A DNA stretch of 64,000 nucleotides, from positions 864,001 through 928,000 of the forward strand of contig CAWEZH010000002.1 of assembly GCA_963813535.1 (NCBI GenBank), written 5' to 3'. Position 1 is the stretch's first letter. The number at the start of each line of letters is the position of its first letter. The stretch is from an uncultured Chloroflexia bacterium. Its GTDB lineage: Bacteria > Chloroflexota > Limnocylindria > Limnocylindrales > CSP1-4. Shown here in pieces: positions 8,311 to 23,965 of the stretch. The notes under the pieces were generated by a model. The model was not told the DNA's origin. It saw nothing but the letters and a program-made list of their open reading frames with translations, and searched no databases. The translations under genes were made by a program, and so were the position numbers.

Positions 8311-9273
8311 ATGGAGCTCGGTCTCTACACGGACTCGTTGCCCGACCACACGCTGGAGGGCGTGCTCGATGTCGCTGCTCGGATCGGCGCGACCGGCATC
8401 GAGATCGCGACGGGCGGACAGTCAGCCGCCCCGCACCTCCGGATGGATGAGCTGCTCGGCGACGCCGGGCGGCGGGCCACCTTCGCCTCGGCGTTCACGA
8501 GCCGGGGCCTGCGTATCGCGGCGCTGAACTGCTCGGCTTGGCCACTCCACCCCGCCGTCGGCGACCGGCATGTGGCCATCGTCCGATCGACCATCCGGCT
8601 CGCCGCGGAGCTCGGCGTGCGGCGCATCGTGACGATGTCCGGCAACCCGGGGGACGGCCCGGGCGGAACGGCCGTCAACTTCACCTGGTATCCCTGGCCG
8701 CCCGAATCGATGGCGCTGCTCGAGCGCCAGTGGGACGCCGCGATCGAACTGTGGCGGGACCTGGGTGCCGAGGCCGAGGCGGCCGGGGTGGAGCGGCTCG
8801 CCTTCGAGCTCCACCCGCTGCACCTGGTCTACAACGTCCCGACGCTGCAGCGGATGCAGGCCGCCGTCGGCCCGATCATCGGCGCGAACCTCGACCCGTC
8901 GCACCTGTTCTGGCAGGGCATGGATCCGCTCGCGGTCATCCGGGCGATCGGTCCCAGCATCGCGCACGTCCACCTCAAGGACACGCAGGTCGTGCCGGCG
9001 CAGGTCGCGATCGCCGGCGTGCTGGACCAGCGACCGTTCGAGGATCCGGCGCAGCGAGCCTGGGTGTTCCGGACCGTGGGTGCGGTCCACGACGGGGCCT
9101 TCTGGTCGGCGTTCGTCGCGGCCCTGCGCGACGTCGGCTATGACGGCGTGCTGTCGATCGAGAACGAGGATGCGAGCCTCGCCCCGGAGGCATCGGTCGA
9201 GCAGGGCGCCGCGTTCATGCGGGACATCCTCGAGCGGTCGGCGGACCGCTCGGAGGTCGGAGCCCTCCCCTAG
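8311..9273 (+). CDS. Sugar phosphate isomerase/epimerase (xylose-isomerase-like TIM barrel)
   Basis: FELHP, NLDPSHLFWQGMDP, HVHLKD, GYDGVLSIENED. Confidence 0.9.
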   Translation: MELGLYTDSLPDHTLEGVLDVAARIGATGIEIATGGQSAAPHLRMDELLGDAGRRATFASAFTSRGLRIAALNCSAWPLHPAVGDRHVAIVRSTIRLAAELGVRRIVTMSGNPGDGPGGTAVNFTWYPWPPESMALLERQWDAAIELWRDLGAEAEAAGVERLAFELHPLHLVYNVPTLQRMQAAVGPIIGANLDPSHLFWQGMDPLAVIRAIGPSIAHVHLKDTQVVPAQVAIAGVLDQRPFEDPAQRAWVFRTVGAVHDGAFWSAFVAALRDVGYDGVLSIENEDASLAPEASVEQGAAFMRDILERSADRSEVGALP

Positions 9274-10655
9274 TCCGCCGCCGAGCCCGCGGCGAGCTGT
9301 TCGCGGTGCGCGGCCAGGAACTCCGCGGTGGCATCGACCAGCCGGTCGACATCGGCCTCGGTGTGGGCGCCCGTCAGGAAGCCGCGGATCATGTAGTGCG
9401 GGTGGACGTAGATCCCGCGCTCCAGCAGCCAGCCGCGGTAGGCCCGCTGGATCGGATGGTCCTTGTCCATCGCGAACCGCGCGAAATCGCGGAAGCGCCG
9501 GATGGGCGCATCGGTGAAGTACATCGTCCAGACGCCCGCCGATTCACGCACCTGGACGCGCGCTCCGGTCTCGTCGATCGCGGCCTGGATCCCGTCCGTG
9601 AGCCGCCGACCCAGGGCACCGATGTGTCGGTGGATGGCGCCTTCGCGCACGATCCCCGTCACCGCCAGCGCGACCGCGACATCGAGGGTATGCCCGGCGA
9701 ACGTCCCCGCGAACAGGACGTCGCCCTTGGGGCCGAGCCGGTCCATGATGTCGCCCCGACCGCAGAGCACCGAGATCGGGAAGCCGTTGCCGATGGCCTT
9801 CCCGAGCGTCGTCAGGTCGGGCGTCACGCCGAACCGTTCCTGGGCGCCGCCGGGCGCATGCCGGAACCCGGTGATGACCTCGTCGAAGATCAGCACGACG
9901 CCCGCGTCCGTGCAGGCGGCACGGATCGTCTCCAGGAACCCTGGCTCGGGCAGGACGACGCCCGCGTTGTGGAAGACCGGCTCGAGGATGACGGCAGCGA
10001 TCGAATCCCCCTCGCGCGCCAACGTGTCGCGGACACCCGCCGCGTCGTTGTACTCGCGGACCACGACGAGATCGCGGACCAGCGACGGGATACCGGCCGA
10101 CGCGGCGACGGGGGTCGGTTCCTCGCCGTCGGTCGCGAAGTGATGGCTCCACGCGACGTAGTCATGCCAGCCGTGGTAATTGCCCTCGAACTTGAGGATC
10201 CGCTCGCGCCCGGTGAACGCGCGGGCGAGCCTGATCGCGTGATACGTCGCCTCCGTCCCGGTGCAGCTGAAGACGACGCGCTCCGCGGACGGGACCATCT
10301 CGACGAGTCGCTCGGCGAGCGCCACCTCGAGCGGGTTGGCAGTCGAGAACGACACGCCGTGCTCGTCCATCGCCCGCATCACGGCCTCGTTGATCCGCGG
10401 GTCGTTGTGGCCGAGCAGGACGGCCCCGAATGACGCGTGGAAGTCCACGTACTCGTTCCCGTCCACGTCCCAGATGCGCGACCCCTGCGCCCGGGTCATG
10501 AACAGCGGATACGGCCGGGCACCTCGGCCCTCGCCCTGGACGCCGCCGGGCGAGACGCGGCTGGCGCGCTCGTACAGGCGGGCCGACTCGTTCGTCGTGA
10601 TCGGCCAGTCGTAGGCCTCGGCGCCGCTCTGTCTGGTCCGGTCGGTAGCCGTCAT
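9270..10655 (-). CDS. Class III PLP aminotransferase, GSA-aminomutase-like
   Basis: WDVDGNEYVD, FEGNYHG, IFDEVITGFR, TLGKAIGNG, AGTF; ATG overlaps upstream stop. Confidence 0.9.
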   Translation of the reverse strand: MTATDRTRQSGAEAYDWPITTNESARLYERASRVSPGGVQGEGRGARPYPLFMTRAQGSRIWDVDGNEYVDFHASFGAVLLGHNDPRINEAVMRAMDEHGVSFSTANPLEVALAERLVEMVPSAERVVFSCTGTEATYHAIRLARAFTGRERILKFEGNYHGWHDYVAWSHHFATDGEEPTPVAASAGIPSLVRDLVVVREYNDAAGVRDTLAREGDSIAAVILEPVFHNAGVVLPEPGFLETIRAACTDAGVVLIFDEVITGFRHAPGGAQERFGVTPDLTTLGKAIGNGFPISVLCGRGDIMDRLGPKGDVLFAGTFAGHTLDVAVALAVTGIVREGAIHRHIGALGRRLTDGIQAAIDETGARVQVRESAGVWTMYFTDAPIRRFRDFARFAMDKDHPIQRAYRGWLLERGIYVHPHYMIRGFLTGAHTEADVDRLVDATAEFLAAHREQLAAGSAAD

Positions 10656-11869
10656 CGGGCCAGAGCTGGTGCGAGATCGGCTAGCGGATCCGCCACCGCG
10701 GTCCGTGAGCCACTGAGCGCCGATGCGTAGATGGCATCGACCACGGCGTTGGCCCGGACGCCGTCCTCGAAGTTCGCGCGGGCCGGTCGCCCTTCGGCGA
10801 TAGCGGTCAGGAACTCGGCCCACATCGCGCACTCCTGTCCCAGGAACCCGATCGACGTGCCGTCAGTGCCCCCGATCAGCAGCTCGACCGCTCCCGGGTG
10901 GGTCGGGTTCACGAGCACGCGACGGTAGCCGAACGTCGAGACATCACCCGGCAGGCAGACCTGGAACTCGTCAGGTCGCTCGAAGTCCCAGGCGGCGGAC
11001 CCGGCCGAACCGAAGACGTCGATGCGCAGCGACACGCGCCGCCCGATCGCCGCCCGGTTCGTCTCGAGCACGCCATACGCGCCGCCGGCGAACGTCAGCA
11101 AGGCGGCCGCGGCATCTTCGACATCGACCCCGCCCAGCGGCGCGTCCGTCGACCGCTTGCCGCCACCGCGGTTCCCGATCGCATCCGCGTCCGGGATCGG
11201 TCGCTCGGTCACGAAGGTCGTCGTGAGTGCCTGGACCGTCTCGATCTCGCCGACCAGGAACCGAGCGCAATCGATGAGGTGGTAGCCGGTATCGATCGCG
11301 ATGCCGCCTCCAGACAGCTCCCGGCGGAAGCGCCACAGGAGCGGCACGTCAGGATCGGCACCGTAGTCGAGCATGAACGACGCCTGCAGGCTGCGGATCG
11401 CCCCGAGCTCCCCGGATCCGATGAGGTCGCGGATCGCGCGCAGCGCCGGCGTCCAGCGATACGCCGCGCCGAGGCCATGGAAGACCCCGGCCGCGCGGCA
11501 CGCGTCCAGGAGGTCCAGCGCGCCGCCGGCGGTCGCCGCGAGCGGCTTCTCGCAGACGATGGCCTTCCCGGCGGCCGCGGTCGCGAGGACGACGTCCGCG
11601 TTCAGGACCGGCGGCAGGCAGGCGACGACCAGGTCGACATCTGGCGCCTCGATCATCCGCCGCCAGTCGGAGTCGACGCGGTCGTAGCCGAATCGATCGC
11701 CCAGCCGCGTCGCGAGACCCTCGTTGACGTCGGCGACCGCGACGAGCCGCGGTCGGAGGGCCAGGTCCGGATAGAGCCCGCGAACCATCGTGAGCGCCGC
11801 GCTGTGGCAGGCGGCCATGGTCCCGGCGCCGACCATGGCGATCCCGATCGATCGGACTCGGTCGGTCAC
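10652..11869 (-). CDS. Gfo/Idh/MocA oxidoreductase
   Basis: VGAGTM, CEKPLA, WRF..GGG..DTGYHLID; GTGA coupling. Confidence 0.9.
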   Translation of the reverse strand: MTDRVRSIGIAMVGAGTMAACHSAALTMVRGLYPDLALRPRLVAVADVNEGLATRLGDRFGYDRVDSDWRRMIEAPDVDLVVACLPPVLNADVVLATAAAGKAIVCEKPLAATAGGALDLLDACRAAGVFHGLGAAYRWTPALRAIRDLIGSGELGAIRSLQASFMLDYGADPDVPLLWRFRRELSGGGIAIDTGYHLIDCARFLVGEIETVQALTTTFVTERPIPDADAIGNRGGGKRSTDAPLGGVDVEDAAAALLTFAGGAYGVLETNRAAIGRRVSLRIDVFGSAGSAAWDFERPDEFQVCLPGDVSTFGYRRVLVNPTHPGAVELLIGGTDGTSIGFLGQECAMWAEFLTAIAEGRPARANFEDGVRANAVVDAIYASALSGSRTAVADPLADLAPALAR

Positions 11870-12999
11870 GAGACGCCTGCGATCGGGGCCGAGGTCGGAG
11901 CGAGCATCTCGTCGACCGTTACGCGCCGGCCCTCGGCGGCCGAGGCGATGATCGCGTCGCACAGGACGGCCGCCTGGTAGCCGTCCTCGAAGCTGGCTTG
12001 TTCGGGTGGCAGCGGCCGGTCCTCGATGACCGCCGACAGGAAGTCCCGCCACTCATGGGCGAAGCTGTGCTCCCAGCCGATGGTGTGGCCGGGTGGCCAC
12101 CACATGTCGAGGAATGGATGATCCGCCTGGGTGACGAGGATGTCGCGGAAGCCACCCGTACCATCGGCCTCGTCGCTCGCGTAGAACACGTGGAGGCGGT
12201 TGAGGTCCTCCATGTCCCACCAGAGCGAGCCCTCCGTCCCGTTGAACTCGACGACCTGGCGGCCCTTCCAGCCCCGCGCGACACGCGACGCCTCGAGCGA
12301 GGCGATGCCGCCACCCCGCAGGTCGATCGCGGCGACATACGCGTCCTCGACATCCACGCCGACGTCGGCACTCGTCAGCTTGGCCGATACCGCCTGGACC
12401 GCCTGCGCTTCATTACCGAGATAGCGGAGGAAGTCGACGATGTGGGCGTAGTCGGTGATGGCCCGGGAGACGTTCGGCCGGCGGCTCGGCACGTGCCCGG
12501 CGGCGTGGTCCTGGAGATACACGGCGCGGAATTGGAGGCAGGTCCCCAGGCGGCCGCTCTCGACGATCCGTCGAGCGAGCCGCATGGCGGGCATGTAGCG
12601 GTAGTTGAAGCCGCATGCGGCCTGGACGCCCGCACGCTGCGCCGCCTCGAGCATCAGTCGGGCCTCGGTCCGCTCCCTCGCCAGCGGCTTTTCGCACAGG
12701 ACCGGCTTGCCGAGAGCCAGCGCGGCTTCGGTGGCTTCACGGTGGGCGGTCTCGCCAAGCAGCACGGCGACGACGTCGACGTTCGGATCCTCGACGACAT
12801 CCGCCCACTCGGTGGTGGATCGCTCGATCTCGAGGTCGCGGGCCATCGCCTCGCCGCGTTCGGCGTTGCGCGCCGCGAGCGCGGTCAGCCGGATGGATCG
12901 TCCGAGCGGGCTGACATGGTTGAGCGTGTGGAGCGCGTGGCCATGCGCACGGGTGATCCACCCGGCTCCGAGGAGCCCGACGCGGATCGGGCGATCCAT
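11866..12999 (-). CDS. Gfo/Idh/MocA oxidoreductase
   Basis: LGAGWI, CEKPLA, GFNYRYMPA, WWPPGHTIGWEH. Confidence 0.9.
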   Translation of the reverse strand: MDRPIRVGLLGAGWITRAHGHALHTLNHVSPLGRSIRLTALAARNAERGEAMARDLEIERSTTEWADVVEDPNVDVVAVLLGETAHREATEAALALGKPVLCEKPLARERTEARLMLEAAQRAGVQAACGFNYRYMPAMRLARRIVESGRLGTCLQFRAVYLQDHAAGHVPSRRPNVSRAITDYAHIVDFLRYLGNEAQAVQAVSAKLTSADVGVDVEDAYVAAIDLRGGGIASLEASRVARGWKGRQVVEFNGTEGSLWWDMEDLNRLHVFYASDEADGTGGFRDILVTQADHPFLDMWWPPGHTIGWEHSFAHEWRDFLSAVIEDRPLPPEQASFEDGYQAAVLCDAIIASAAEGRRVTVDEMLAPTSAPIAGVS

Positions 13000-13010
13000 C
13001 CGCGGCGCCG

Positions 13011-14324
13011 TCAGGCAGGCACGGCCGGCGGCGCCGCCACGCCGCCCAGGATGCGCTCCGGGTCGGCGATGACACGGCGGATCGTGTCGGCGTACAGCTC
13101 GATCAGCTCGAGCGGCTGGACGAAGATCGGGTGACGCGCATCGCAGATCACGAGCGACGAGTCGAGCATCGCCGTGGCCTCGGGATAGTCGGCGACGTCG
13201 TACGTGACGTCGCGACCGGCCGGTGGCTGGGTCCACGGGAACGTGCCGCCGAACCCGACCCGATCCTGGAAGACCGGGAATGCCGGGGCCGGCTGGGAGT
13301 GCCACAGCTCGACGCCGACGCCCTCGGCCATGAGCGCCTGCCCGAGGGCGTCCCGGAAGACCGTCGGCGGGACGTGCCCGAGACCGAGCGCCGCCGGCTC
13401 GAGGCGAACGCGGTACTGGTAGTACGACGACGTCCGATCGGAGGGGACGTGCGGCGTCACGATCCCCGGCACGCCGGCGAACTCCGCATCCAGGTAGGCG
13501 GCGTTCCGCTGGCCGGTCGCGATGTAGTCGGGCAGCCGCTGCAGCTGGGAACGCGCCAGGGCTGCCGGCATCTCTTGGTGGCGGTAGTTCCACCCGACCG
13601 AGTGGGACGTGTACGGTCGGAAGTTCCAGCCGGTCAGTCGTGCCAGCTCGGGGATGTCCTCGCCGAAGGTCCGCAACCGCCGGGCACGGGCGATGACGTC
13701 TGGATCGTCCGCGACGAACAGGCCGCCCTCACCACCCGACAGGATCTTGCTCGAGTTGAGGCTGTAGCAGCCGACGACGCCGTACGAGCCGACCCGGCGA
13801 CCGCGGTACGTCGCGCCATGGGCCTGGCAGGCGTCCTCGATGACCTTGAGACCGTGCCGGTCCGCGATGGCGATGATCTCGTCCAGGTCTGCCGGGAGCC
13901 CGCCGATGTGGACGGCGATGATGGCCCGCGTCCGCGGCGTGATCTTCGCCTCGATCTGGCTCGCATCGAGGTTGAACGTGCGGGGATCGATATCGACGAA
14001 GACCGGGATCGCCAGCTGTTGCAGGATCGGCTGCCACGTGCCGGCGAAGGTGTAGGACGTGGTGATCACCTCGTCCCCAGGCTCGATCCCGATGGCGTAG
14101 AGGGCGGCGTGGATGGCTGCCGTCCCCGAGTTGAACAGCAGACCGGTCGACCGGCCGACGAAGGCTGCCCACTCGTTCTCGAGGGCCGTCATCTCGGGGG
14201 CGCCGACGCCGCCGAGGATGCCTCGCTCGAGCACGGCCGCGACCGCGGCCCGGTCCTCGGGCCGGATGTCCGGCCAGCGTCGCTTGAGCCCCTCTGGGAC
14301 GCGGCTACCTTCGGGAGATCCCAT
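13011..14324 (-). CDS. DegT/DnrJ/EryC1/StrS sugar or cyclitol aminotransferase
   Basis: NSGTAA, IEDACQAHGA, SLNSSKILSGGEGG (PLP lysine), GWNYR. Confidence 0.92.
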   Translation of the reverse strand: MGSPEGSRVPEGLKRRWPDIRPEDRAAVAAVLERGILGGVGAPEMTALENEWAAFVGRSTGLLFNSGTAAIHAALYAIGIEPGDEVITTSYTFAGTWQPILQQLAIPVFVDIDPRTFNLDASQIEAKITPRTRAIIAVHIGGLPADLDEIIAIADRHGLKVIEDACQAHGATYRGRRVGSYGVVGCYSLNSSKILSGGEGGLFVADDPDVIARARRLRTFGEDIPELARLTGWNFRPYTSHSVGWNYRHQEMPAALARSQLQRLPDYIATGQRNAAYLDAEFAGVPGIVTPHVPSDRTSSYYQYRVRLEPAALGLGHVPPTVFRDALGQALMAEGVGVELWHSQPAPAFPVFQDRVGFGGTFPWTQPPAGRDVTYDVADYPEATAMLDSSLVICDARHPIFVQPLELIELYADTIRRVIADPERILGGVAAPPAVPA

Positions 14325-14401
14325 CGGATCACGTCCGTTCTTCGTGCGGCCTTGACGGTCGCCCGATCGTACCGTACGTGGTCGTCGCCGATACGGCGGT
14401 C

Positions 14402-15283
14402 CTAGCGCATGGGCCGTCGTCCGAACGGCAGCCGAGGATCGAGCGCCCCCTCGGTCCAGGCCTCGCGCACCCAGGCGTGCGACGGGTCGTCGCACGCATG
14501 CCAGGCGCGCTCGCCGGGTCCGCCCATCACGTTGAGGTAGTACAGGTCGTACCCCGGCGCGGCCATCGCGGGTCCGTGCCAGCCGTGTGGGACGAGGACG
14601 ACATCGCCGGTCGCGACCGTCGTCAGCAGCTCGATCGGCCGCTCCGGGGTGCCATAGACGTGCTGGTACGCCAGGCCGGGTCCGGCCGGGCCATCGCCCA
14701 CGACGTAGTGATAGATCTCCTCGAGCTCGGTCTCGCCCGGACGGACCTCGTCGTGCTTGTGCGGCGGATACGAGCCCCAGTTACCGCCCGGCGAGAGGAC
14801 CTCGACGGCGATGAGCCGGTCAGCCTCGAAGCGATGCGCGGCCGCGAAGTTGCGGACCTCGCGCGACGAGGCGCCCGCCCCGCGCATCTCGACCGCGACG
14901 TCGGACGCCGCGACGTACCTGACCGGGAAGCGCCGTTCGCCTCGGGCGGTGGCGACGGCGAACCGACCACCACCGGCGCTGGCGACCTCGACCGATGAGC
15001 CCGGCGGTGCATACAGGAAGTCGGTGGGACCCGCCCACACGTCGGGGCGCCCTCCGAGCTCGTATCGCGCGCCGTCCACGGTCACGCCGAAGGCACCTTC
15101 GAGCGGCAACACGGCGACCTCATCGCCGGCGCTCTCGAAAGCGATCGTCGCCCCCGGCGCGAGCGTCGCAGCCCGCAGCCCGCAGTACCGCCAACCGGCC
15201 GCTTCCGGCGTCAGGACGACCGACCACGCTCCGTCGGCCAGCGACCCGGCCGGCCGGTAGAGCTCCGCCGCGTTGTCGGTCAC
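14402..15283 (-). CDS. iolB: 5-deoxy-glucuronate isomerase
   Basis: TPEAAGWRY, EVLSPGGNWGSYPPHKHDE, LEEIYHY, VPHGWHGP, YYLNVMGGP. Confidence 0.93.
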   Translation of the reverse strand: MTDNAAELYRPAGSLADGAWSVVLTPEAAGWRYCGLRAATLAPGATIAFESAGDEVAVLPLEGAFGVTVDGARYELGGRPDVWAGPTDFLYAPPGSSVEVASAGGGRFAVATARGERRFPVRYVAASDVAVEMRGAGASSREVRNFAAAHRFEADRLIAVEVLSPGGNWGSYPPHKHDEVRPGETELEEIYHYVVGDGPAGPGLAYQHVYGTPERPIELLTTVATGDVVLVPHGWHGPAMAAPGYDLYYLNVMGGPGERAWHACDDPSHAWVREAWTEGALDPRLPFGRRPMR

Positions 15284-16410
15284 GCGGACGGCTTGAGGTC
15301 CGGGTTCGGGACGAGCGCGTCGCCCACCTGGTGCTGCAGGTCGTGATACGACGCGATGAAGGCGCGCAGGGTCCGTGCGCTCGGTCCGAACGCATCGAAC
15401 TCGGACGGGCCGAGACCATCGGGCTCGTACGCCCTGGCGAAGTCCGGGAAATGCCGGCGAAGCTCGTCGACGATGACCGGGTCCACCGGGTCGTCCATCC
15501 GGGGACGCACCTCGATGTCGGACGCGTTGAACCGGCGCTGCCAGGCAGACGGCATCGTGATGATCACGTCGCCACCGATCAGCTCGGACCAGTGCAGGTG
15601 GTGGCGGATCGCTGCGGCGAGCGGGCGCGCCCGGAGCCCGCGCGCACGGAACTCGTCGACGGTCCGCTTGAAGACCGCGACGCCGGACCAGGGCAACGCG
15701 GCCGGATCGGCGACGATCCCGTCGCGCTCGGTCTGCAGCCGGAGCCAGTCCTCCAGGCGACCCATCATGACGGTGATCACCGGGCCCATGTCGTCGACCT
15801 GCAGGCCATCCGCCTCGCGGCGGTGCAACCCACGCTCGACGGCTTCGCCCGCGGCGATCGCCTGGGCCACCGAGAACGACACGGTGGCGTTCACGTTCAC
15901 GCCACGGTAGGTCGCCTCCTCCATGACCCGGACGCCGACCTCGGTGGCGGGGAACTTGACGATGATGTTCGGCGCGAGACCGGCGAAGTGCTCGCCCTGG
16001 GCGAGCATCCGATCGAACGACCGAAAGAGCGTGGGGTCGGTCTGCACCGACAGGCGACCCTGACGCCCGCCGCTGGCCTCGAATGCGGGCCGCAGCAACG
16101 GCGCGGCCCGGAGCGACATCTCCTCGACGATCGCCCATGCCAGGTCGACCTCGGTCGCGGCAGGCAGGTCACCGGCACGGGTCCGGACCCGATCCCGCCA
16201 GTAGGCCGGATCCTGCTTCCAGACATCGGTGACGATCGTCGGATTCGCCGTCGCGCCGACGGCGCCGTAGGAGATGGCGTACTCGAGCTCCGGCACCGAA
16301 CAGGAGTCGTTCCAGACATCGGTCGGAGTCGTGGCGATCGTCCGGCCGAGCGGCGAATCCGCCAGCGGCAACGTCGTCGAGCGGCCGATCGTGTCCGTAG
16401 CGCTACCCAC
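15280..16410 (-). CDS. Transaldolase-family protein with atypical active site
   Basis: WNDSCS, ATANPTIV, IIVKFPAT (Schiff-base Lys), NVNATVSFS, MGRLEDW; AGGAGG before GTG 16410. Confidence 0.88.
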   Translation of the reverse strand: MGSATDTIGRSTTLPLADSPLGRTIATTPTDVWNDSCSVPELEYAISYGAVGATANPTIVTDVWKQDPAYWRDRVRTRAGDLPAATEVDLAWAIVEEMSLRAAPLLRPAFEASGGRQGRLSVQTDPTLFRSFDRMLAQGEHFAGLAPNIIVKFPATEVGVRVMEEATYRGVNVNATVSFSVAQAIAAGEAVERGLHRREADGLQVDDMGPVITVMMGRLEDWLRLQTERDGIVADPAALPWSGVAVFKRTVDEFRARGLRARPLAAAIRHHLHWSELIGGDVIITMPSAWQRRFNASDIEVRPRMDDPVDPVIVDELRRHFPDFARAYEPDGLGPSEFDAFGPSARTLRAFIASYHDLQHQVGDALVPNPDLKPSA

Positions 16411-16433
16411 CTGGGATCCTCCTGCGAGCCGCA

Positions 16434-16462
16434 TTGACACCGGGTCGACACCGCGATACCGT
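16434..16462 (+). promoter_or_regulatory. sigma70-type promoter for the iolE-like/iolG/ABC operon
   Basis: TTGACA (16434-16439), 17 nt spacer, TACCGT (16457-16462). Confidence 0.6.
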
Positions 16463-16489: not shown

Positions 16490-16608
16490 GCGGGATGTTC
16501 TAGGAGGGGACGTTGCCCGTCACGCCCGCGGACGCCCACGATACGCCACGTCGCCGAGATACCATCGCGACTGCGCGCGAGCTCGAGGGGGCCGGTCGAG
16601 GAGCATCG

Positions 16609-17583
16609 ATGACCACCGTCACGGCCGTCCGAGGCACGGCGCCCGACCTGCGGCGCGCTGGTGATGCCCTCCCCAATGCCCCGATCGGGACGGTCCCCAT
16701 CCTCTGGTACAACGCCGACCCTGAGGTGGGCCGGTGGGACGCCCCGGCGATCCTCGACGAGATCGCCCGTCTCGGGTACGAGGGAACCCAGCTCGGCACG
16801 GACTTCCCGACCGGAGAGACGCTGCGGGTCGAGCTGTCCCGACGCGATCTCCGACTGGCGGAGGTGTACGTGCCGATCCCGACGACCGTCGACGGACCGA
16901 CCTCGGGGGCGATGGCGGTCGCCGTCGAGTGCCTGACCCGGCTGAACGAAGCGGGCGGCGACGTCCTGTGCGTGGCTGTCGACGGCTCGGCCGACCGAGA
17001 CGCGCGGGGCGGCCGCGCCGTCGAGCCCGGCACGCCGGCCCTCACCGATGCCGGCTGGGAGGCGCTGATCGAGCTCCTTCACGCGGTCGCGGACGCCGCT
17101 ACGGAGCTCGGCCACACGACGGTCTTCCATCCGCACGCCGCGACCTACGTCGAGACTCTTGACGAGATCGACCGGCTGGTGCGATCGACGGCTCCGGAGC
17201 GCATCGGCGTCTGCCTCGACACTGGGCATCACCTGGTCGCCGGTGGCGATCCGGTCGCCGACCTGCGGGCACTTGGCGAGCGGGTCCGCCACGTGCACCT
17301 CAAGGACGTCGATCCGGATGTCCTGGCGGGTCTGCGCGCGGGAGCCTACGACGGCATGGCCGATGCGGTCCGCCAGGGCCTGTTCACCGAGCTCGGTGCC
17401 GGCTCGCTGGACCTCGATGGGGTCCTCGCCGCTCTCGCGGCACGGTCCTATGACGGCTGGCTCATGGTCGAGCAGGATCGGGGCCTCGGTCCCCCATCCG
17501 AGAGCGCGGCGATCGGCCGGCGTGTGCTGGCCGCGTCGCTGCGACGGCTCGGTGCGGACCAGGCAGGAGCGGGTACGCCGTGA
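16609..17583 (+). CDS. IolE/MocC-like TIM barrel (putative inosose dehydratase)
   Basis: APIGTVPILWYN, GYEGTQLG, FHPHAATYVE, CLDTGH, HVHLKDVD, FTELGAG, WLMVEQD; alternative in-frame TTG start at 16513 also has an SD. Confidence 0.8.
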   Translation: MTTVTAVRGTAPDLRRAGDALPNAPIGTVPILWYNADPEVGRWDAPAILDEIARLGYEGTQLGTDFPTGETLRVELSRRDLRLAEVYVPIPTTVDGPTSGAMAVAVECLTRLNEAGGDVLCVAVDGSADRDARGGRAVEPGTPALTDAGWEALIELLHAVADAATELGHTTVFHPHAATYVETLDEIDRLVRSTAPERIGVCLDTGHHLVAGGDPVADLRALGERVRHVHLKDVDPDVLAGLRAGAYDGMADAVRQGLFTELGAGSLDLDGVLAALAARSYDGWLMVEQDRGLGPPSESAAIGRRVLAASLRRLGADQAGAGTP

Positions 17584-18578
17584 GGATCGCTCTGCTCGGT
17601 GCCGGCCGGATCGGGCGGCTCCATGCCCGCCTGTTGAAGGCGACGCCCGGCGTCGACGGCGTCGTCGTCGGCGACGTCGATGCGGACCGCGCCCTCGACG
17701 TTGCAAAGACCGTCGGGATCGAGTCGGCGCCCACCATCGACGCGGCCCTGGACGGCGCTGGCGCCGTGGTCATCGCAGCCGCGACGACGGCGCATCCGGA
17801 GCTCATCCGCGAGTCGATCGGCCGGGGACTGCCGACGTTCTGCGAGAAGCCGCTCGCCGCCACCCTCGACGACACCATCGCACTCGCGGCCGATATCGAC
17901 CGCTCCGGGATCCCGTTCCAGCTCGGCTTCCAGCGGCGTTTCGATCCTGCCTACCGGGAGGTCCACCGGCTCATCCGGAACGGGTCGCTCGGCACGCTCT
18001 ACGCCATCCGCCTGGCCGGCCACGACCCGGCTCCGGCGCACGAGGCGTACATCGCCCAATCGGGTGGCCTGTTCCGGGACTTCTCGATCCACGACTTCGA
18101 CATCCTGCGCTGGATGACCGGCTGCGAGGTCGAGGAGGTCTACGCCGACGGCGGCGTCCGGGGGTTCCCGGTCTTCGAGAAATACGGCGATGTCGATACC
18201 GCGGTCGTCACTCTCCGCCTCACCGACGGACCGTTCACCGTGATGACCGTCGCTCGCCATGATCCGCTCGGCTACGACATCCGCGCCGAGATCTTCGGCT
18301 CGGGCGACAGCGTCGCGGTCGGGCTCGGTCCCAGAACGCCCTTGCGCTCGGTCGAACCGGGCGTGCCCCCGCCGGCCGGGCCGGCGTGGAAGGACTTCCT
18401 CGTGCGCTTCGAATCGGCCTACGCGGCCGAGTTCGCGGCCTTCGTCGCGCTCGCCCGCGGCGATGCTCCCAGTCCCTGTACGGCCCGAGACGGTGTCGCG
18501 GCTCTCCGCGTCGCCGAAGCGGCCGATCGCTCGCTCCACGAACACCGACCAGTGCGGCTCGCGGAGATCCCCGGCTGA
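17580..18578 (+). CDS. iolG: Inositol 2-dehydrogenase-like Gfo/Idh/MocA enzyme
   Basis: LGAGRIG, FCEKP, GFQRRFD, SGGLFRDFSIHDFD, GYDIRAEIFGS. Confidence 0.85.
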   Translation: MRIALLGAGRIGRLHARLLKATPGVDGVVVGDVDADRALDVAKTVGIESAPTIDAALDGAGAVVIAAATTAHPELIRESIGRGLPTFCEKPLAATLDDTIALAADIDRSGIPFQLGFQRRFDPAYREVHRLIRNGSLGTLYAIRLAGHDPAPAHEAYIAQSGGLFRDFSIHDFDILRWMTGCEVEEVYADGGVRGFPVFEKYGDVDTAVVTLRLTDGPFTVMTVARHDPLGYDIRAEIFGSGDSVAVGLGPRTPLRSVEPGVPPPAGPAWKDFLVRFESAYAAEFAAFVALARGDAPSPCTARDGVAALRVAEAADRSLHEHRPVRLAEIPG

Positions 18579-18737
18579 GAACGGGTCACGGCCGCCCTCG
18601 GGACGGCCTGACGAAAGGAGGTGTCCATGGCGGCCACGTCGGCCGCGGATCGACAGTCATCCCTCGGCTCCACCCTTCGGGTGGATGACATCTGGACCGT
18701 GGCGCCTGCCGCGGCACATCGGAGGAGAACGAACGGT

Positions 18738-19748
18738 ATGAACCTACGGAAAGTGCTCGTCGGCCTCGCTGGCGCGGCGATCATCGTCGGAGCCTGCTCG
18801 ACCGGGACCCCGACCGGGTCGGGAGCCACGACGGGCAGCGGCCCGGACGGTGCGCTCGTCAAGCGCAGCGACATCAAGATCGAGTATGTGACCCACGGCC
18901 AGGCCCAGGACGGGTTCTGGGGCGTGGTCCGCAACGGCGTCAAGGCCGGCGCGGCCGACATGGGCGTGACGGCGAACTACAGCGCGCCGGGCCAGGAAAG
19001 TGACATGCCCGGCATGGTGTCGCTCATCGATGCCGCCATCGCCAAGAAGCCGACCGGGCTCGTCGTCTCGATCCCCAACCCCGACGCACTCGGGCCTGCC
19101 ATCAAGAAGGCCGTCGACGCCGGGATCCCAGTCGTGTCGATGAACTCCGGGTCGGACGTCTTCAAGGAACTGGGTGTCCTGGCACACGTCGGCCAGACCG
19201 AATACGAGGCTGGCCTCGGGGCCGGTCAGCGGTTCAAGGACGCCGGCGTGAAGAACGCCGTCTGCTTCAACCAGGAGGTCGGCAACCAGGCGCTGACCCT
19301 TCGCTGCAACGGCTTCTTCATGGGCCTGACCGGCTCCGAGGATGGTGAGGTCCTGACGGGCAACATCTCCGACCCGGCCGGCATGCAGGCGACGATCGCG
19401 GCCGCGCTCCAGTCGGACGCGACGATCGACGGTCTCCTCACCCTGGGCCCGTCCGTGGCCAAGCCGGCGCTCGACGCCGTCGCCGCGTCGGGCAAGACCA
19501 TCCATCTCGCCACCTTCGACCTCAGCGCTGACGTGCTGACGGCGATCAAGGACGGGAAGATGGACTTCGCCATCGATCAGCAGCAGTTCCTGCAGGGCTA
19601 CCTGCCGATCGTGATCCTCACGAACTATGCCGAGACCAGGAACCTCCCGACCGGCAACGGCCAGGGCCTGATCATGACCGGCCCCGGGTTCGTGACCAAG
19701 GAGTCCGCAGCGGACGTCATCGCGCTCGCCGCGAAGGGCCTTCGCTAG
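18738..19748 (+). CDS. Sugar (inositol-type) ABC substrate-binding lipoprotein
   Basis: IVGAC lipobox, [31 protein letters not shown]; GGAGG SD. Confidence 0.9.
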
Positions 19749-19760
19749 CACCACGCTCGC

Positions 19761-19809
19761 GCGCCGGCTCCGCCGGCGCTTGGGAGGGACCGGCGTCTGC
19801 CGGTCCCTC
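19761..19809 (+). terminator. Tandem GC hairpins after the SBP gene (mRNA stabiliser or attenuator)
   Basis: GCGCCGGC-TCC-GCCGGCGC (19761-19779) and GAGGGACCGGC-GTCT-GCCGGTCCCTC (19784-19809); no U-tract. Confidence 0.5.
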
Positions 19810-19831
19810 ACCACCACATCGGAGGAGACGG

Positions 19832-20914
19832 ATGGCGAGCACGACGACCGCGGCTCCAGCCGCACCCGGATCGGACCGACTCCGGCAGCTCTCCCTGGCC
19901 CAGCGCCTCCTGTCACGTCCCGCCACCGGGGCGCTGATCATCGTGGTGTTCGTCTGGGTCGTGTTCGCGGCGATCACGCTCGCGCGGGGAAGCACGGCCT
20001 TCATCAGCCTCGCCGGTACGCTCAACTACCTGGACGTGGCGGCCCAGGTGGGCATCATCGCCACGGCCGTCGCCCTGCTGATGATCGCGGGGGAGTTCGA
20101 CCTGTCGATCGGCTCGATGGTCGGGTTCGCCGGGATCATCATGGGCATCGGCGTCACCATCTGGCATCTGCCGGTCTGGCTCTCGATCCTGATGGCGATG
20201 GCGCTCGCGACGGTCTTCGGCGCCGTCAACGGGATCATCGTGGTGCGGACCGGTCTGCCCTCGTTCATCGTGACGCTGGCCACGTTGTTCATCATCCGGG
20301 GCGCGTCGTCAGTGCTCACCTCGATCGTGAGCCCGATCACTTACATCCCGATCGACCCCGTGCTGATCGCCAGCGACCCGCTGGCGTCGATCTTCGCGTG
20401 GAACTTCCCGATCCGGCTCGAGGATGGGGCGACGACCAGCATCCAGGTGTCGATCATCTTCTGGATCCTCATCGCGGTCGTCGGCATCTACGTGCTCGGC
20501 CGGACACGGTTCGGCAACTGGATCGCCGGCGTCGGCGGATCCGGAGCTGCGGCCCGCAACCTCGGCGTGCCCGTCGCGCGGGTCAAGATCGCGCTGTTCG
20601 CCCTGACCGGCCTCTCGGCAGCGATCCTCGCCGCCATACAAACGACGCGCTTCACATCGGCCGACATCCTGCGCGGCACCGGCTACGAGCTCGACGCGAT
20701 CACGACGGCGGTCATCGGCGGCTCGCTCCTGACCGGTGGGTATGGGTCCGTCGCCGGCACGGCACTCGGAGCCCTGGCCCTCGGCATGGCGCGCCAGGGC
20801 ATCGTCTTCGCTGACATCAACGCCGACTGGTACAAGATCGCGATCGGCACGCTGCTGCTCATCGCGGTCGTCCTCAACAACTGGATCCGGCGCAAGTTCG
20901 CCGGCCTGACGTAG
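19832..20914 (+). CDS. Sugar ABC permease, RbsC-like
   Basis: [33 protein letters not shown]. Confidence 0.93.
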
Positions 20915-20927
20915 GAGGGCCGACCCC

Positions 20928-21842
<915 letters not shown>

Positions 21843-21894
21843 CGAGCGATCCGAGCGCCGGAGCCGTCCGGCATCGGAACGAAGGACCATAGCG

Positions 21895-22893
21895 ATGACG
21901 GCAACGATCGCCGATGTCGCAGCGAAGGCCGGGGTGTCGACGGCCACGGTCAGTCGCGTCCTGGCCGGTCTCGGCCACGCGCGACCGGAGACGCGGGCGC
22001 GCGTCCTCGAGGCCGCTCGCGATCTCGATTACCGGCCGTCGGAGGTCGCCCGCTCGCTCAAGCGTCGTTCGACGCAGACGCTCGGGCTGATCATCACGGA
22101 CATCGAGAACCCGTATTTCCCGCAGCTCGTGCGGTCGGTCGAGGACGCCGCACGAGCCGCCGGCTATTCGGTCCTGCTGTGTAACGCCGCGGACGACCCC
22201 GAGCGAGAGGCGTCGTACCTCGACCTGCTGGTCGACCGGCGCGTGGACGGCCTGGTCATCGCCGCGAGCAGCCTCGGCGTCCGTCAGGGCGACTGGCTCA
22301 CCGCCCCACCGATCCCGGTCGTGCTCGTGAACACGGCCGCCCCCGAGTCCGGACTGCCGACGATCATGTCGGACAACGAGCAAGGCGGCCGCATCGCCGC
22401 CGACCACCTGCTGGGTCGCGGGCACCGGCTGTTCGGCTACCTCATGCCGCCGCCACGGAACGTCGACGCACCCGATCGTCTCGCCGGTGTGCGCAGCGCT
22501 CTGGCCGACGCCGGCTGTCCGGGGGATGCCCTGACGATCACCCATGGTGAGGCGCTGGTCGGGGGCGGTGAGGCAGCGACCGAGGAGCTGCTCGACCTGG
22601 CACCGGGCACGACGGCGATCGTGGCCTACAACGACCTGATGGCGATCGGCGCGATCAGGGCGCTTCGACGGCGTGGCCGACGGGTGCCCGTCGATACGAG
22701 CGTGGTCGGCTTCGACGACGTGCCCCTCGCCACGTACGTCGATCCGGCGCTGACCACGATCTCGCAACGCACGGACGAGATGGGCCGCTGGGCCGTGGAA
22801 CGCCTCATCGGTGAGAACGGCGTCGGGCCATCGTCGGTGCGGCTGCCGGTCGATCTCCAGGTCCGCGACTCGACGGGACCAGTGCCCGGCTGA
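21895..22893 (+). CDS. LacI-family transcriptional regulator
   Basis: TIADVAAKAGVSTATVSRVL, NPYF, NDLMAIG, VVGFDD. Confidence 0.95.
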   Translation: MTATIADVAAKAGVSTATVSRVLAGLGHARPETRARVLEAARDLDYRPSEVARSLKRRSTQTLGLIITDIENPYFPQLVRSVEDAARAAGYSVLLCNAADDPEREASYLDLLVDRRVDGLVIAASSLGVRQGDWLTAPPIPVVLVNTAAPESGLPTIMSDNEQGGRIAADHLLGRGHRLFGYLMPPPRNVDAPDRLAGVRSALADAGCPGDALTITHGEALVGGGEAATEELLDLAPGTTAIVAYNDLMAIGAIRALRRRGRRVPVDTSVVGFDDVPLATYVDPALTTISQRTDEMGRWAVERLIGENGVGPSSVRLPVDLQVRDSTGPVPG

Positions 22894-22899
22894 AGGCCA

Positions 22900-23868
22900 C
22901 TACTGGCGCCTGTCCTCCACGCCGACCTGGGCGGTCAGGCTGGGCACGACCGCGCGGCGGACCCGTTCGCGCGCTCGCCGGACGAGCACCGACGTGCGGT
23001 CCGGGACACCGGCCAGGCCGACGTCCTCGACCGCGAGCGATCCGGCAGCAGCGGCGAAGCGCAGGGCTCGGGCCGGCGATGTGCCCGGCGAAGCGGCGAC
23101 TCTCGGCCGCACGAACACGGCGAGCAACGCGGCCAGGAACGTGTCCCCTGCCCCGGTCGGATCGACCTCGCCTTCGGTCGGGGTCGGCAGATAGCGGAGC
23201 ACCTCGACCGGACCGTCATCGCCGGTCGTGACGAGCAAGCCACCGTGACCACCCTGTGTGACCAGCAGGCGCGCACCGGGATGGAGGAACCGCGAGAGGT
23301 CGCCGAGCGACGTGTCCCGCGCCACGTCGAGGTGGCTGAGACCGACGAGGTCGGCGCGGCGGAGGATAGCCCGATCGCTCGGCGCCACCCGCTCGACATG
23401 GGCGCCGGCAACGAGCCGGCGAAGCATGCCCTGCCACGCGACGGCGACGATCGCGTCGGGTCCGATCGCCTCGACCCAGTCGTCGTGCACCTCGTCGGCG
23501 ACCGGCACCAGCGACCACGACCGACTGGCCAGCCACGACGACGGCAGCGACACCGGCCGGACCGGCACGCCGACCGCCATGGACGTCTGACGTCGACCCT
23601 GCGGCGTCTCCTGGTTGTGGAAGATCGGCCCCTCGGGCAGGTCGACCGCGAGCACGTCGACGCCGGCATCGCGCATCTCATCGAGCTCGTGAGCGGTCGA
23701 CGCCTCGCGGTCGACACCGACCACCGCTGCCGTCCGGAGACCGAGCCGGGCGGTGGTCAACGCCGCGTACGTCACGCCGCCGCCCAGACGCCAGCCGCGC
23801 GGATCATCCGGCGCGATATCGCGCGCGGCCGACCCGACATGGACGACCTCGACGTGCGGTGACGGCAT
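22900..23868 (-). CDS. PfkB-family carbohydrate kinase
   Basis: GGGVTYAA..ARLG, DPTGAGDTF; GGAGG SD. Confidence 0.88.
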   Translation of the reverse strand: MPSPHVEVVHVGSAARDIAPDDPRGWRLGGGVTYAALTTARLGLRTAAVVGVDREASTAHELDEMRDAGVDVLAVDLPEGPIFHNQETPQGRRQTSMAVGVPVRPVSLPSSWLASRSWSLVPVADEVHDDWVEAIGPDAIVAVAWQGMLRRLVAGAHVERVAPSDRAILRRADLVGLSHLDVARDTSLGDLSRFLHPGARLLVTQGGHGGLLVTTGDDGPVEVLRYLPTPTEGEVDPTGAGDTFLAALLAVFVRPRVAASPGTSPARALRFAAAAGSLAVEDVGLAGVPDRTSVLVRRARERVRRAVVPSLTAQVGVEDRRQ

Positions 23869-23965
23869 CGGACCTCCCTCGTGCTCGAGCGGGCGCCTGA
23901 GCTCAGGGCCACCGAGCGGTGCGGCGTATACTGCCGCACCCGAACGCAACGATGAGGCTGCCCAC

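Follow-up and report, generated by a model that had tools for sequence, protein, structure and literature searches.

A transaldolase-like protein encoded with iolB as a candidate replacement for IolC and IolJ in bacterial inositol breakdown

The transaldolase-like (TAL-like) protein encoded next to iolB in an uncultured Chloroflexia bacterium appears to be a class I Schiff-base enzyme acting on unphosphorylated 5-dehydro-2-deoxy-D-gluconate (DKG, or 2-deoxy-5-keto-D-gluconate, the product of IolB), and would in that case replace both IolC and IolJ, a reading to which we give a probability of about 0.68. That DKG is the substrate is probable from the gene context and distribution of the family, taken together with the fold and the conserved catalytic residues. 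A preliminary description of this DNA had already proposed a kinase-free cleavage of DKG without IolC and IolJ; comparative genomics lends support to that proposal, although one of the residue arguments advanced for it, a Phe in place of a Tyr, proved to be wrong.

The window, by which we mean the whole 64-kb stretch of DNA that was analysed, carries the features listed in Table 1. Initiation at the GTG codon behind the Shine-Dalgarno sequence gives a TAL-like protein of 376 aa, its homologues being 372–384 aa long, and the motifs RLSVQTDP, IVKFPAT, NATVSFS and AAIR are all found in it. In public annotation the protein and its homologues are called 'transaldolase (family protein)'. The GTGA overlap with iolB that had been reported earlier is present, and the overlapping gene passes the curated iolB model, being the only iolB match of a profile search in the whole genome. 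Four genes 3' of iolB form a block on the same strand, the order of which is kept in same-genus relatives. On the divergent side, the binding protein of the ABC transporter has its best match in a rhizopine-catabolism SBP model (NF052284, 291.7 bits vs a cut-off of 420). The kinase-like gene farther along reaches 24.6 bits with the iolC model, has no NCBIfam match and aligns weakly with T. maritima TM0415 over its full length (E 7.7e-5); it is kept only in the closest lineage (3/10 genus loci, 1/80 wider loci).

Table 1. Features at the locus, in window positions
Feature	Position	Strand	Basis
Class-III aminotransferase	9270-10832	-	Pfam/NCBIfam; ORF bounds, not gene starts
GFO/IDH/MocA oxidoreductase 2	ORF 10652-12052	-	Pfam/NCBIfam; ORF bounds, not gene starts
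GFO/IDH/MocA oxidoreductase 1	ORF 11866-13593	-	Pfam/NCBIfam; ORF bounds, not gene starts
DegT-type aminotransferase	ORF 13011-14495	-	Pfam/NCBIfam; ORF bounds, not gene starts
iolB, 5-deoxy-glucuronate isomerase, 293 aa	14402..15283	-	TIGR04378, 275.8 bits vs cut-off 205
GTGA overlap of TAL-like stop (TGA) and iolB start (GTG), translational coupling	15280..15283	-	Read from sequence
TAL_FSA-family gene, 376 aa, proposed DKG transaldolase/aldolase	15280..16410	-	Pfam PF00923, 110.3 bits vs cut-off 27
Shine-Dalgarno AGGAGG	16418..16423	-	7 nt before GTG start at 16410, read from sequence
IolE-like	16513-17583	+ (divergent)	TIGR04379, 178.6 bits, below cut-off 290
IolG-like	17580-18578	+ (divergent)	TIGR04380, 297.8 bits, below cut-off 355
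Sugar-type ABC transporter (substrate-binding protein, permease, ATPase) and LacI-family regulator	18621..22893	+	Pfam
Weak PfkB-family kinase-like gene	22900..23949	-	Pfam PfkB, 50.1 bits, C-terminal part only

The broad TAL_FSA family is the sole Pfam family in the TAL-like protein, and neither a class II aldolase (PF01116) nor a DUF2090 (PF09863) domain was found in it by Pfam. All curated transaldolase models are failed, the best of them being NF002881 (86.5 bits vs 367), with TIGR00876 at 56.2 bits vs 233.75 and TIGR00874 at 26.9 vs 396.2; the FSA model TIGR00875 is failed as well (35 bits vs 245.95), and the protein is longer than FSA (376 vs ~220 aa). An AF2 model (pLDDT 93.8) predicts a full TIM-barrel transaldolase fold, for which the top Foldseek match is the type-2 transaldolase of C. 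glutamicum (3r5e, E 2.2e-18, TMq 0.79), while TalB (1onr) gives a TMq of 0.67. With the classical transaldolases, namely TalB and the type-2 enzymes of C. glutamicum and N. gonorrhoeae (3clm), the protein shares this fold over its full length, the Lys that forms the Schiff base, an Asp, an Asn, a Thr and both Arg at the anion site, and the long architecture with type-2-like insertions is that of the type-2 enzymes. However, identity to the classical enzymes is only ~20%, the protein scores below all curated family cut-offs, the TalB residues E96, F178 and S226 are replaced by Gln, Met and Ala, and the gene sits in an inositol catabolic operon rather than a pentose-phosphate one. Because the curated models are failed and a separate, normal transaldolase of 235 aa with the Glu96 and Phe178 equivalents is encoded on contig C3, the TAL-like protein is, judged by its sequence, not the housekeeping transaldolase.

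Active-site residues were mapped by alignment with E. coli TalB and FsaA taken from NC_000913.3. Residues D35, N56, K152, N174, T176, R218 and R269 correspond to TalB D17, N35, K132, N154, T156, R181 and R228, so that the Lys of VKFP, read earlier as the Schiff-base Lys, is indeed at the expected position. Two further readings of the preliminary description hold in the alignment, the Gln of SVQTDP at the TalB Glu position (Q123 pairs with E96, and with Q59 of FsaA) and the Ala of AAIR in the phosphate-binding motif. In that site, formed in TalB by Arg181, Ser226 and Arg228, both Arg are kept and Ser is replaced by Ala267, and the anion site of the TAL-like protein could hold either phosphate or carboxylate. 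The Phe of TVSFS, in contrast, had been assigned to the wrong position: F179 pairs with TalB F159 and FsaA Y112, and the column of FSA Tyr131 and TalB Phe178, the latter of which, together with the acid/base E96, we take to be a catalytic position, holds Met215 (VMMGR). Titles of PDB entries name the transaldolase variants E96Q, F178Y, D17A, N35A, T156A and S176A. FsaA itself shares the Lys, the Asp, the Asn, the Thr and the first of the two Arg, but it is a short-type protein of 220 aa with a catalytic Tyr where the TAL-like protein has Met.

The family is large, spans several phyla and carries an invariant active-site signature. The seven residues matching TalB are invariant or nearly so among 77 members, and at least 90% conserved among 28 representatives at 30–52% identity; the Gln and the Met are present in 77/77 relatives, and N34, K248 and H273 are family-specific and invariant across phyla. 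Such conservation makes the TAL-like protein a plausible active enzyme, but since the acid/base residues of both TalB (Glu) and FSA (Tyr) are replaced, its activity could be low or different.

DKG has a free CH2OH-CO-CHOH end. In the mechanism we propose, Lys152 would form an imine at C5, the keto carbon of DKG, the carboxylate of which would be held by R218 and R269 where TalB binds phosphate, and cleavage of the C3-C4 bond would then release malonate semialdehyde, to be converted to acetyl-CoA via MmsA/IolA. The bound dihydroxyacetone unit may be passed on to glyceraldehyde-3-phosphate (GAP) to give fructose-6-phosphate (F6P), an end that is favoured at roughly 60:40 over hydrolysis of the enzyme-bound unit to free dihydroxyacetone. 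It is a more tentative suggestion that the enzyme is a glyceronetransferase between the donor DKG and the acceptor GAP that brings inositol carbon to F6P kinase-free and with neither the Glu nor the Tyr, and that abundant Chloroflexota and Acidobacteriota of soils break down inositol mainly in this way; for such an enzyme a new acid/base residue would be sought among N34, K248 and H273, or help might come from the carboxylate of the substrate itself.

The canonical iol pathway achieves the same net step, from DKG to malonate semialdehyde and a C3 unit, through IolC and IolJ, of which the latter cuts the same bond to yield DHAP and malonic semialdehyde (PMC3176187). Both are unrelated in sequence to the TAL-like protein, IolC being a PfkB kinase and IolJ a class II aldolase or DUF2090 protein. 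Whereas the canonical route takes two proteins, ATP and metal chemistry and ends in DHAP, the proposed one would take a single protein, no ATP and a Schiff base, and would give F6P or dihydroxyacetone. Its layout of isomerase, transaldolase and aldehyde dehydrogenase would follow that of the sulfo-TAL pathway, in which the isomerase SftI, the transaldolase SftT (acceptor GAP or E4P) and the aldehyde dehydrogenase SftD act (PMC7491151). The logic with SftT (BmSF-TAL, 8bc3) is alike, in that a ketose carrying an anionic tail at one end and free dihydroxyacetone at the other loses a C3 unit, and the anionic aldehyde is oxidised; the tail is a sulfonate there and would be a carboxylate here. SftT belongs to another, short-type branch of the family, with 41.7% identity to the T. 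acidophilum transaldolase (PMC7491151), and its match to the TAL-like protein is weak and limited to 76 residues (28.1 bits, E 1.4e-5), so any recruitment would have been independent.

As had been noted before, no iolD, iolC or IolJ-type gene lies over its curated cut-off inside the window; iolD is found ~1.5 kb beyond the left edge (834 bits vs a cut-off of 715), and with iolD next door only IolC and IolJ would be replaced. A search of the whole genome, which is 92.9% complete, gives the same picture: mmsA/iolA is encoded elsewhere, no gene reaches the iolC cut-off of 300 (best ~195.9 bits), the DUF2090 aldolase has no match, and PF01116 has a single weak one. This last match (C2:975020-975847) was rejected as a candidate: it bears no NCBIfam name, and its neighbours are a GntI-like kinase and a permease rather than iol genes. 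Likewise set aside was the gene closest to iolC in score (C2:1256193-1257233), which adjoins a two-component system and scores slightly higher with the KDG/KDGal kinase model (218.9 bits) than with iolC. A HpaI/GarL-type aldolase in front of iolD was also considered for the cleavage of DKG and rejected, because such an enzyme would require a substrate from the class of 2-oxo acids, to which DKG would not belong. Two soil RNA-library runs, which contain only 5-6% of the sampled words, gave no evidence of transcription or co-transcription; nine short contigs with 90-99% likeness together match stretches of the two genes, none spans the junction, and DNA carry-over may account for them.

Gene context across the family points the same way. 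Within the genus, iolB adjoins the TAL-like gene in 5/10 loci, which are all five with at least 67% identity. The 80 closest TAL-like loci come from Chloroflexota, Acidobacteriota, Acidimicrobiia, Hyphomicrobiales and others, and in 40 of them iolB and/or iolD lies within the flank, with iolE in 34 and an aldehyde dehydrogenase in 19; iolG is also among the neighbours in several phyla. The flanking iolB is over its cut-off in 6/6 tested, and in 6/6 tested the aldehyde dehydrogenase is a CoA-acylating malonate-semialdehyde dehydrogenase (MMSDH/IolA) over its cut-off. Linkage of the TAL-like gene to iol clusters (iolB, iolD, iolE, iolG, iolA) was thus found across lineages, and since many genomes across several phyla repeat its adjacency to iolB, this pairing is more than chance. 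In canonical clusters it is iolC that occupies the place beside iolB held here by the TAL-like gene. Two compact operons, LacI-iolB-TAL-iolD-iolE-iolG (L096) and iolB-TAL-iolD-MMSDH-iolE (L076), exemplify a type in which the sole step absent is that from DKG to malonate semialdehyde, and no recurrent kinase or other aldolase cluster was found across the 80 loci. Fusion proteins join an IolE-like to a TAL-like part (P0138) and a TAL-like to a KduI/IolB part (P0125). The other 40 loci, some of them short contigs, have neither iolB nor iolD in the flank, and paralogues sharing the signature are found next to MMSDH, a split transketolase and GntR at loci where the flank is free of iol genes.

The anticorrelation with iolC that the preliminary description had put forward as a check is borne out in samples of two phyla. 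Among 401 Chloroflexota genomes, 80 have iolB over the cut-off, and these divide into 27 with iolC, 21 with the TAL-like gene, none with both and 32 with neither (Fisher test, p = 3.5e-5 when genomes are counted and 2.9e-3 when genera are, values that overstate the case because related genomes are not independent); the gene lies at most 3 kb from iolB in 16 of the 21 carriers. In the second phylum, 12 iolB genomes (the chosen centre excluded) comprise eight with iolC only and four with the TAL-like gene only, and none with both or neither. Complementarity is not absolute, as 4/36 genomes in a set picked for iol-linked TAL-like genes also have iolC over the cut-off, and in one of these genomes (G064) the pieces with iolC and with the TAL-like gene may derive from a single cluster that is broken up. 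Given the 32 genomes with neither gene, absence of iolC alone does not point to the TAL-like enzyme.

Other readings can be set against this evidence. The strongest, which is contained in the main reading as a variant but is by itself rather unlikely, is that of an FSA-like lyase splitting DKG into malonate semialdehyde and free dihydroxyacetone with no acceptor, the latter then being taken up by a dihydroxyacetone kinase. Gln123, at the position of FsaA Gln59 and unlike TalB Glu96, would suit a lyase, and a DhaK-type kinase subunit (Dak1, 413.6 bits) in the genome would make free dihydroxyacetone usable; however, this gene is on another contig, unlinked to the cluster, the catalytic FSA Tyr is replaced by Met, and the architecture is that of a long type-2 transaldolase rather than a short FSA.

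It is less probable still that the substrate is a different ketose, from a route related to inositol or aminocyclitols, or an intermediate that a non-orthologous kinase has phosphorylated, in which case IolC and IolJ would not be replaced one for one. The operon in the window also contains two aminotransferases and extra GFO/MocA dehydrogenases, the closest lineage keeps the PfkB-like gene, the KDG-kinase-like protein reaches 195.9 bits with the iolC model, and both the paralogues without iol genes and the 32/80 iolB genomes with neither iolC nor the TAL-like family would fit such a substrate. Yet the extra window genes are lineage-specific, other phyla having just iolG, iolE, iolD, iolB and the TAL-like gene, with or without mmsA, and no recurrent kinase was found; retention of iolB alongside argues for DKG as the substrate, and the MMSDH found next to it where iol genes are absent likewise suggests that malonate semialdehyde is the product. 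To our knowledge, a phosphate on the dihydroxyacetone end would not fit known transaldolase or FSA chemistry, which speaks against a phosphorylated intermediate.

An ordinary pentose-phosphate transaldolase isoenzyme (F6P/S7P) co-regulated with the inositol genes is very improbable: the Pfam match, the fold and the public annotation agree with it, and SftT too keeps S7P transaldolase activity (PMC7491151), but every curated transaldolase model is failed by a wide margin, Glu96 and Phe178 are kept only in the other transaldolase of the genome, and the linkage to iolB, iolD and mmsA and the exclusion of iolC would be left unexplained. A catalytically dead or regulatory protein, as the replacement of both the TalB Glu and the FSA Tyr might suggest, is hardly credible, with Lys, Asp, Asn, Thr, both Arg, N34, K248 and H273 invariant across phyla and the gene translationally coupled inside a catabolic operon.

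A search of openly accessible papers, supplements aside, turned up none that connects an enzyme of the transaldolase family with inositol breakdown; the papers retrieved, judged by title and the opening of the abstract, bring up the two subjects apart from each other. The replacement of IolC and IolJ by a TAL-like enzyme would thus give bacteria a widespread way of degrading inositol that has not been described before. If true, the textbook pathway (IolG, E, D, B, C, J, A) would gain a second ending, and the many genomes with iolB and iolD that lack iolC and iolJ and seem 'incomplete' when pathways are reconstructed, 21/80 in Chloroflexota and 4/12 in the second phylum among the iolB-bearing samples, would be explained. 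It would also be the second independently evolved use of the transaldolase fold, after sulfo-TAL, for C-C cleavage in the catabolism of anionic, non-phosphorylated sugars, and an active site without either of the known acid/base residues would be of interest for the mechanism of transaldolases and FSA and for biocatalysis.

2-Deoxy-5-keto-D-gluconate (5-dehydro-2-deoxy-D-gluconate, DKG), the product of IolB, reads CH2OH-CO-CHOH-CHOH-CH2-COO- from C6. It is a look-alike of fructose-6-phosphate (F6P) with a carboxylate at the tail end, and its two carbinol centres are probably D-threo as in fructose. The transaldolase-fold enzyme encoded beside iolB, hereafter the TAL-like protein, would most probably form an imine through Lys152 at C5 of DKG and break the C3-C4 bond, upon which malonate semialdehyde would leave; two retained Arg residues may hold the carboxylate, and the C3 unit would be passed to glyceraldehyde-3-phosphate (GAP) to give F6P, or lost as dihydroxyacetone. 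Such release rather than transfer could occur, as the FSA-like Gln (Q123) and a DhaK gene in the same genome would suggest, but the protein lacks the FSA Tyr and is built like a type-2 transaldolase. In the canonical route, as described in PMC3176187, IolB yields DKG, IolC phosphorylates it at C6, IolJ cleavage gives DHAP and malonic semialdehyde, and IolA converts the latter to acetyl-CoA.

The genome (3.28 Mb, ~70% G+C, 92.9% complete) has a single iolB. The TAL-like gene starts with GTG, 7 nt downstream of AGGAGG (an alternative GTG at 16440 would give 386 aa), and its TGA shares GTGA with the GTG of iolB, an overlap that the preliminary description had already read in the sequence. For the binding protein of the divergent ABC transporter, the top-scoring match is the rhizopine-catabolism SBP model. 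RNA-library contigs from relatives span mere fragments, too little to show expression. The absence of iolC and iolJ, previously noted for the window, appears to extend to the rest of the genome, whereas iolD lies just outside the window. The top iolC match (195.8 bits vs 300) scores higher as KDG kinase and is located away from the iol genes, the DUF2090 domain, which forms the aldolase part of fused IolC proteins, has zero matches, and PF01116 gives a single low-scoring hit (56.7 bits) in an unrelated neighbourhood. A PfkB-like gene without NCBIfam match, kept at the locus end in the nearest lineage only, weakly matches T. maritima TM0415 (PDB 1vk4, 5ysp) over its full length (E 7.7e-5).

Features of the locus and related genes (plain positions, window, which spans C2:864001-928000; C2 and C3, contigs of the own genome G000; L, genomic loci)
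Feature	Position	Strand	Remarks
TAL-like gene	15280-16410	-	376 aa; sole Pfam family TAL_FSA, 110.3 bits
iolB	14402-15283	-	curated equivalog TIGR04378, 275.8 bits (cut-off 205)
DegT-type aminotransferase, two GFO/IDH/MocA oxidoreductases, class-III aminotransferase	downstream of iolB	-	same strand
IolE-like gene, IolG-like gene, ABC transporter, LacI regulator	divergent from TAL-like gene/iolB		
PfkB-like gene	22900-23949	-	
iolD	1.5 kb left of window edge		834 bits (cut-off 715)
mmsA/iolA	C2:1443238		724 bits
Second transaldolase	C3:329657-330298		235 aa
Superlocus, 35 kb	C2:852500-888000 (window about -11500 to 24000)		
HpaI/GarL-type class II aldolase	L026:13653-14693 = C2:859653-860693	+	172 bits (below cut-off); just upstream of iolD, overlapping its start
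Open frame, 972 codons	3-2252, running on to C2:863337	-	coding-like GC3 0.86; 750 aa within window without Pfam family
TPP enzyme in iolD's place	L049:7185-8963	-	Limnocylindria
TPP enzyme in iolD's place	L053:8083-9894	-	Limnocylindria

Within ten 20-kb regions of the same genus, iolB adjoins every orthologue with 67% identity or more (five in all) but none of the five paralogues at 54-57%. A scan of one genome per species yielded 587 relatives; the best 80 loci, from Chloroflexota, Acidobacteriota, Acidimicrobiia, Spirochaetia, Hyphomicrobiales and others, were annotated by tblastn with own-genome proteins and by clustering of all ORFs. iolB and/or iolD is found in the flank of 40 of the 80 (iolB in 32, iolD-like in 38), together with iolE-like (34), GFO/IolG-like (38) and one cluster of aldehyde dehydrogenases (19). 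The last were CoA-acylating (methyl)malonate-semialdehyde dehydrogenases over cut-off in 6/6 members tested; flanking iolB passed its cut-off in 6/6 and iolD in 2/4, the other two being from Limnocylindria. No recurrent kinase or second-aldolase cluster appeared among the ORF clusters of the 80 loci, and compact operons such as L096 (LacI, iolB, TAL-like, iolD, iolE, iolG) and L076 (iolB, TAL-like, iolD, MmsA/IolA-type dehydrogenase (MMSDH), iolE) encode all canonical steps except that from DKG to malonate semialdehyde. Another ketose substrate, or a kinase escaping recognition, is a conceivable but rather improbable account.

In Limnocylindria loci L048-L056, iolD's place is taken by an AHAS-like TPP enzyme, which in the two genes tested scored 392-411 bits on acetolactate-synthase models vs 322-326 on the IolD model (cut-off 715); this could be a diverged or a non-orthologous enzyme for ring opening. 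TAL-like paralogues of 54-57% identity and identical active-site signature occur in four loci of Limnocylindria/Chloroflexia MAGs (L091, L097, L119, L079). Their neighbours include a GntR/FCD regulator and a transketolase split into N-terminal and pyrimidine/C-terminal halves, and iol genes are missing from the flanks; MMSDH follows directly in the first three and an EamA transporter in L079.

The anticorrelation with iolC expected in the preliminary description held in two samples of iolB genomes. Among 401 Chloroflexota genomes sampled, 80 have iolB, with 27 carrying iolC only, 21 TAL-like only, 0 both and 32 neither; by genus (44) the counts are 17, 11, 0 and 16 (Fisher test at genome level p 3.5e-5, at genus level 2.9e-3, values inflated by kinship). 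In the phylum to which L096, titled Bryobacterales, belongs (301 sampled, centre excluded), 12 have iolB, of which 8 carry iolC only, 4 TAL-like only, and 0 both or neither. Of the 21 Chloroflexota carriers, 16 have the TAL-like gene no more than 3 kb from iolB, and in iolC genomes that place is often occupied by iolC (e.g. G663, G681, G708, G411). Exclusivity is nevertheless incomplete, since four of 36 genomes chosen for an iol-linked TAL-like gene also have iolC over cut-off, adjoining iolB and/or iolD homologues. In one of them, G047, the iolC piece has its own iolB and iolD and thus represents a second cluster; a single cluster that was broken up may account for both pieces, iolC and TAL-like, in G064. 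The 32 Chloroflexota genomes with neither (e.g. G221, G248, G304, G452, G151, G204), 11 of them from genus g74 with iolB scores barely above cut-off, point either to yet another solution besides these two or to some other function of their IolB-like proteins.

The TAL-like protein, seven family members and the genome's second transaldolase were aligned with E. coli TalB and FsaA (NC_000913.3), and functional residues of TalB and FSA were mapped onto the 376-aa numbering by script. TalB D17, N35, E96, K132, N154, T156, S176, F178, R181, S226 and R228 correspond to D35, N56, Q123, K152, N174, T176, T213, M215, R218, A267 and R269, and FsaA Q59 and Y131 to Q123 and M215. The fetched TalB and FsaA sequences carry these letters at these numbers, and variants of the same residues are named in the titles of PDB entries. 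The Schiff-base Lys, the Gln replacing the TalB Glu and the Ala in 'ASFR' are all borne out, but the Phe of 'TVSFS' had been misplaced at the FSA Tyr position, where Met stands. The second transaldolase has the normal Glu and Phe. Conservation of D35, Q123, K152 and T176 is 90% or higher across 28 full-length representatives (30-52% identity), and N34, D35, N56, Q123, K152, N174, T176, F179, T213, M215, R218, K248, A267, R269 and H273 show little or no variation among 77 sequences taken from the 80 nearest loci, a conservation independent of gene context.

Judged by sequence, the protein is a member of a large, distinct family. It reaches none of the curated transaldolase/FSA models (best 86.5 bits vs 367), its closest solved structure by sequence is C. 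glutamicum transaldolase 3r5e (56 bits), and 315 clusters (50% identity) match it at E <= 1e-30. The closest 120 database proteins (82-98% identical, 372-384 aa) bear generic names, none more specific than 'transaldolase' or 'transaldolase family protein'. The AlphaFold2 model (28 family sequences; pLDDT 93.8) superposes full-length on type-2 transaldolases (TMq 0.79 for 3r5e, 0.67 for TalB). Fusions join the TAL-like domain to an N-terminal IolE-like xylose-isomerase TIM barrel (P0138, 655 aa) and to KduI/IolB (P0125, possibly a read-through); in P0249 (495 aa) the partner is an M24 metallopeptidase domain. Despite the shared fold, an ordinary pentose-phosphate transaldolase isoenzyme is unlikely because of the active-site, family-model, context and distribution findings, and a catalytically dead enzyme is unlikely because of the residue conservation.

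The iolB/TAL-like pair lies inside a superlocus with three IolE-like TIM-barrel genes, at least five GFO/IDH/MocA dehydrogenases, two DegT-type and one class-III aminotransferase, two ABC transporters (including the one whose binding protein is nearest the rhizopine-catabolism SBP model), two LacI regulators and an F420-type LLM oxidoreductase, so that it looks like a locus for catabolism of amino-inositols or other cyclitols beyond myo-inositol. A 2-hydroxyacid dehydrogenase gene is present ~1 kb upstream of the HpaI/GarL-type aldolase gene, and homologues of both adjoin the iol/TAL-like cluster of L059, an Acidimicrobiia MAG.

The sulfo-TAL pathway, according to PMC7491151, runs from isomerase SftI through transaldolase SftT, for which GAP or E4P is required, to the aldehyde dehydrogenase SftD. 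The proposed series of IolB, TAL-like enzyme and MmsA would resemble this triad, although the TAL-like enzyme probably evolved separately, because sulfofructose transaldolase (8bc3) matches it with only 28 bits. No paper tying a transaldolase-family enzyme to the iol pathway was found in the literature searched. As read from the genomes, what is new would be a function within a known fold and a further ending to an established pathway, with sulfo-TAL as its analogue.
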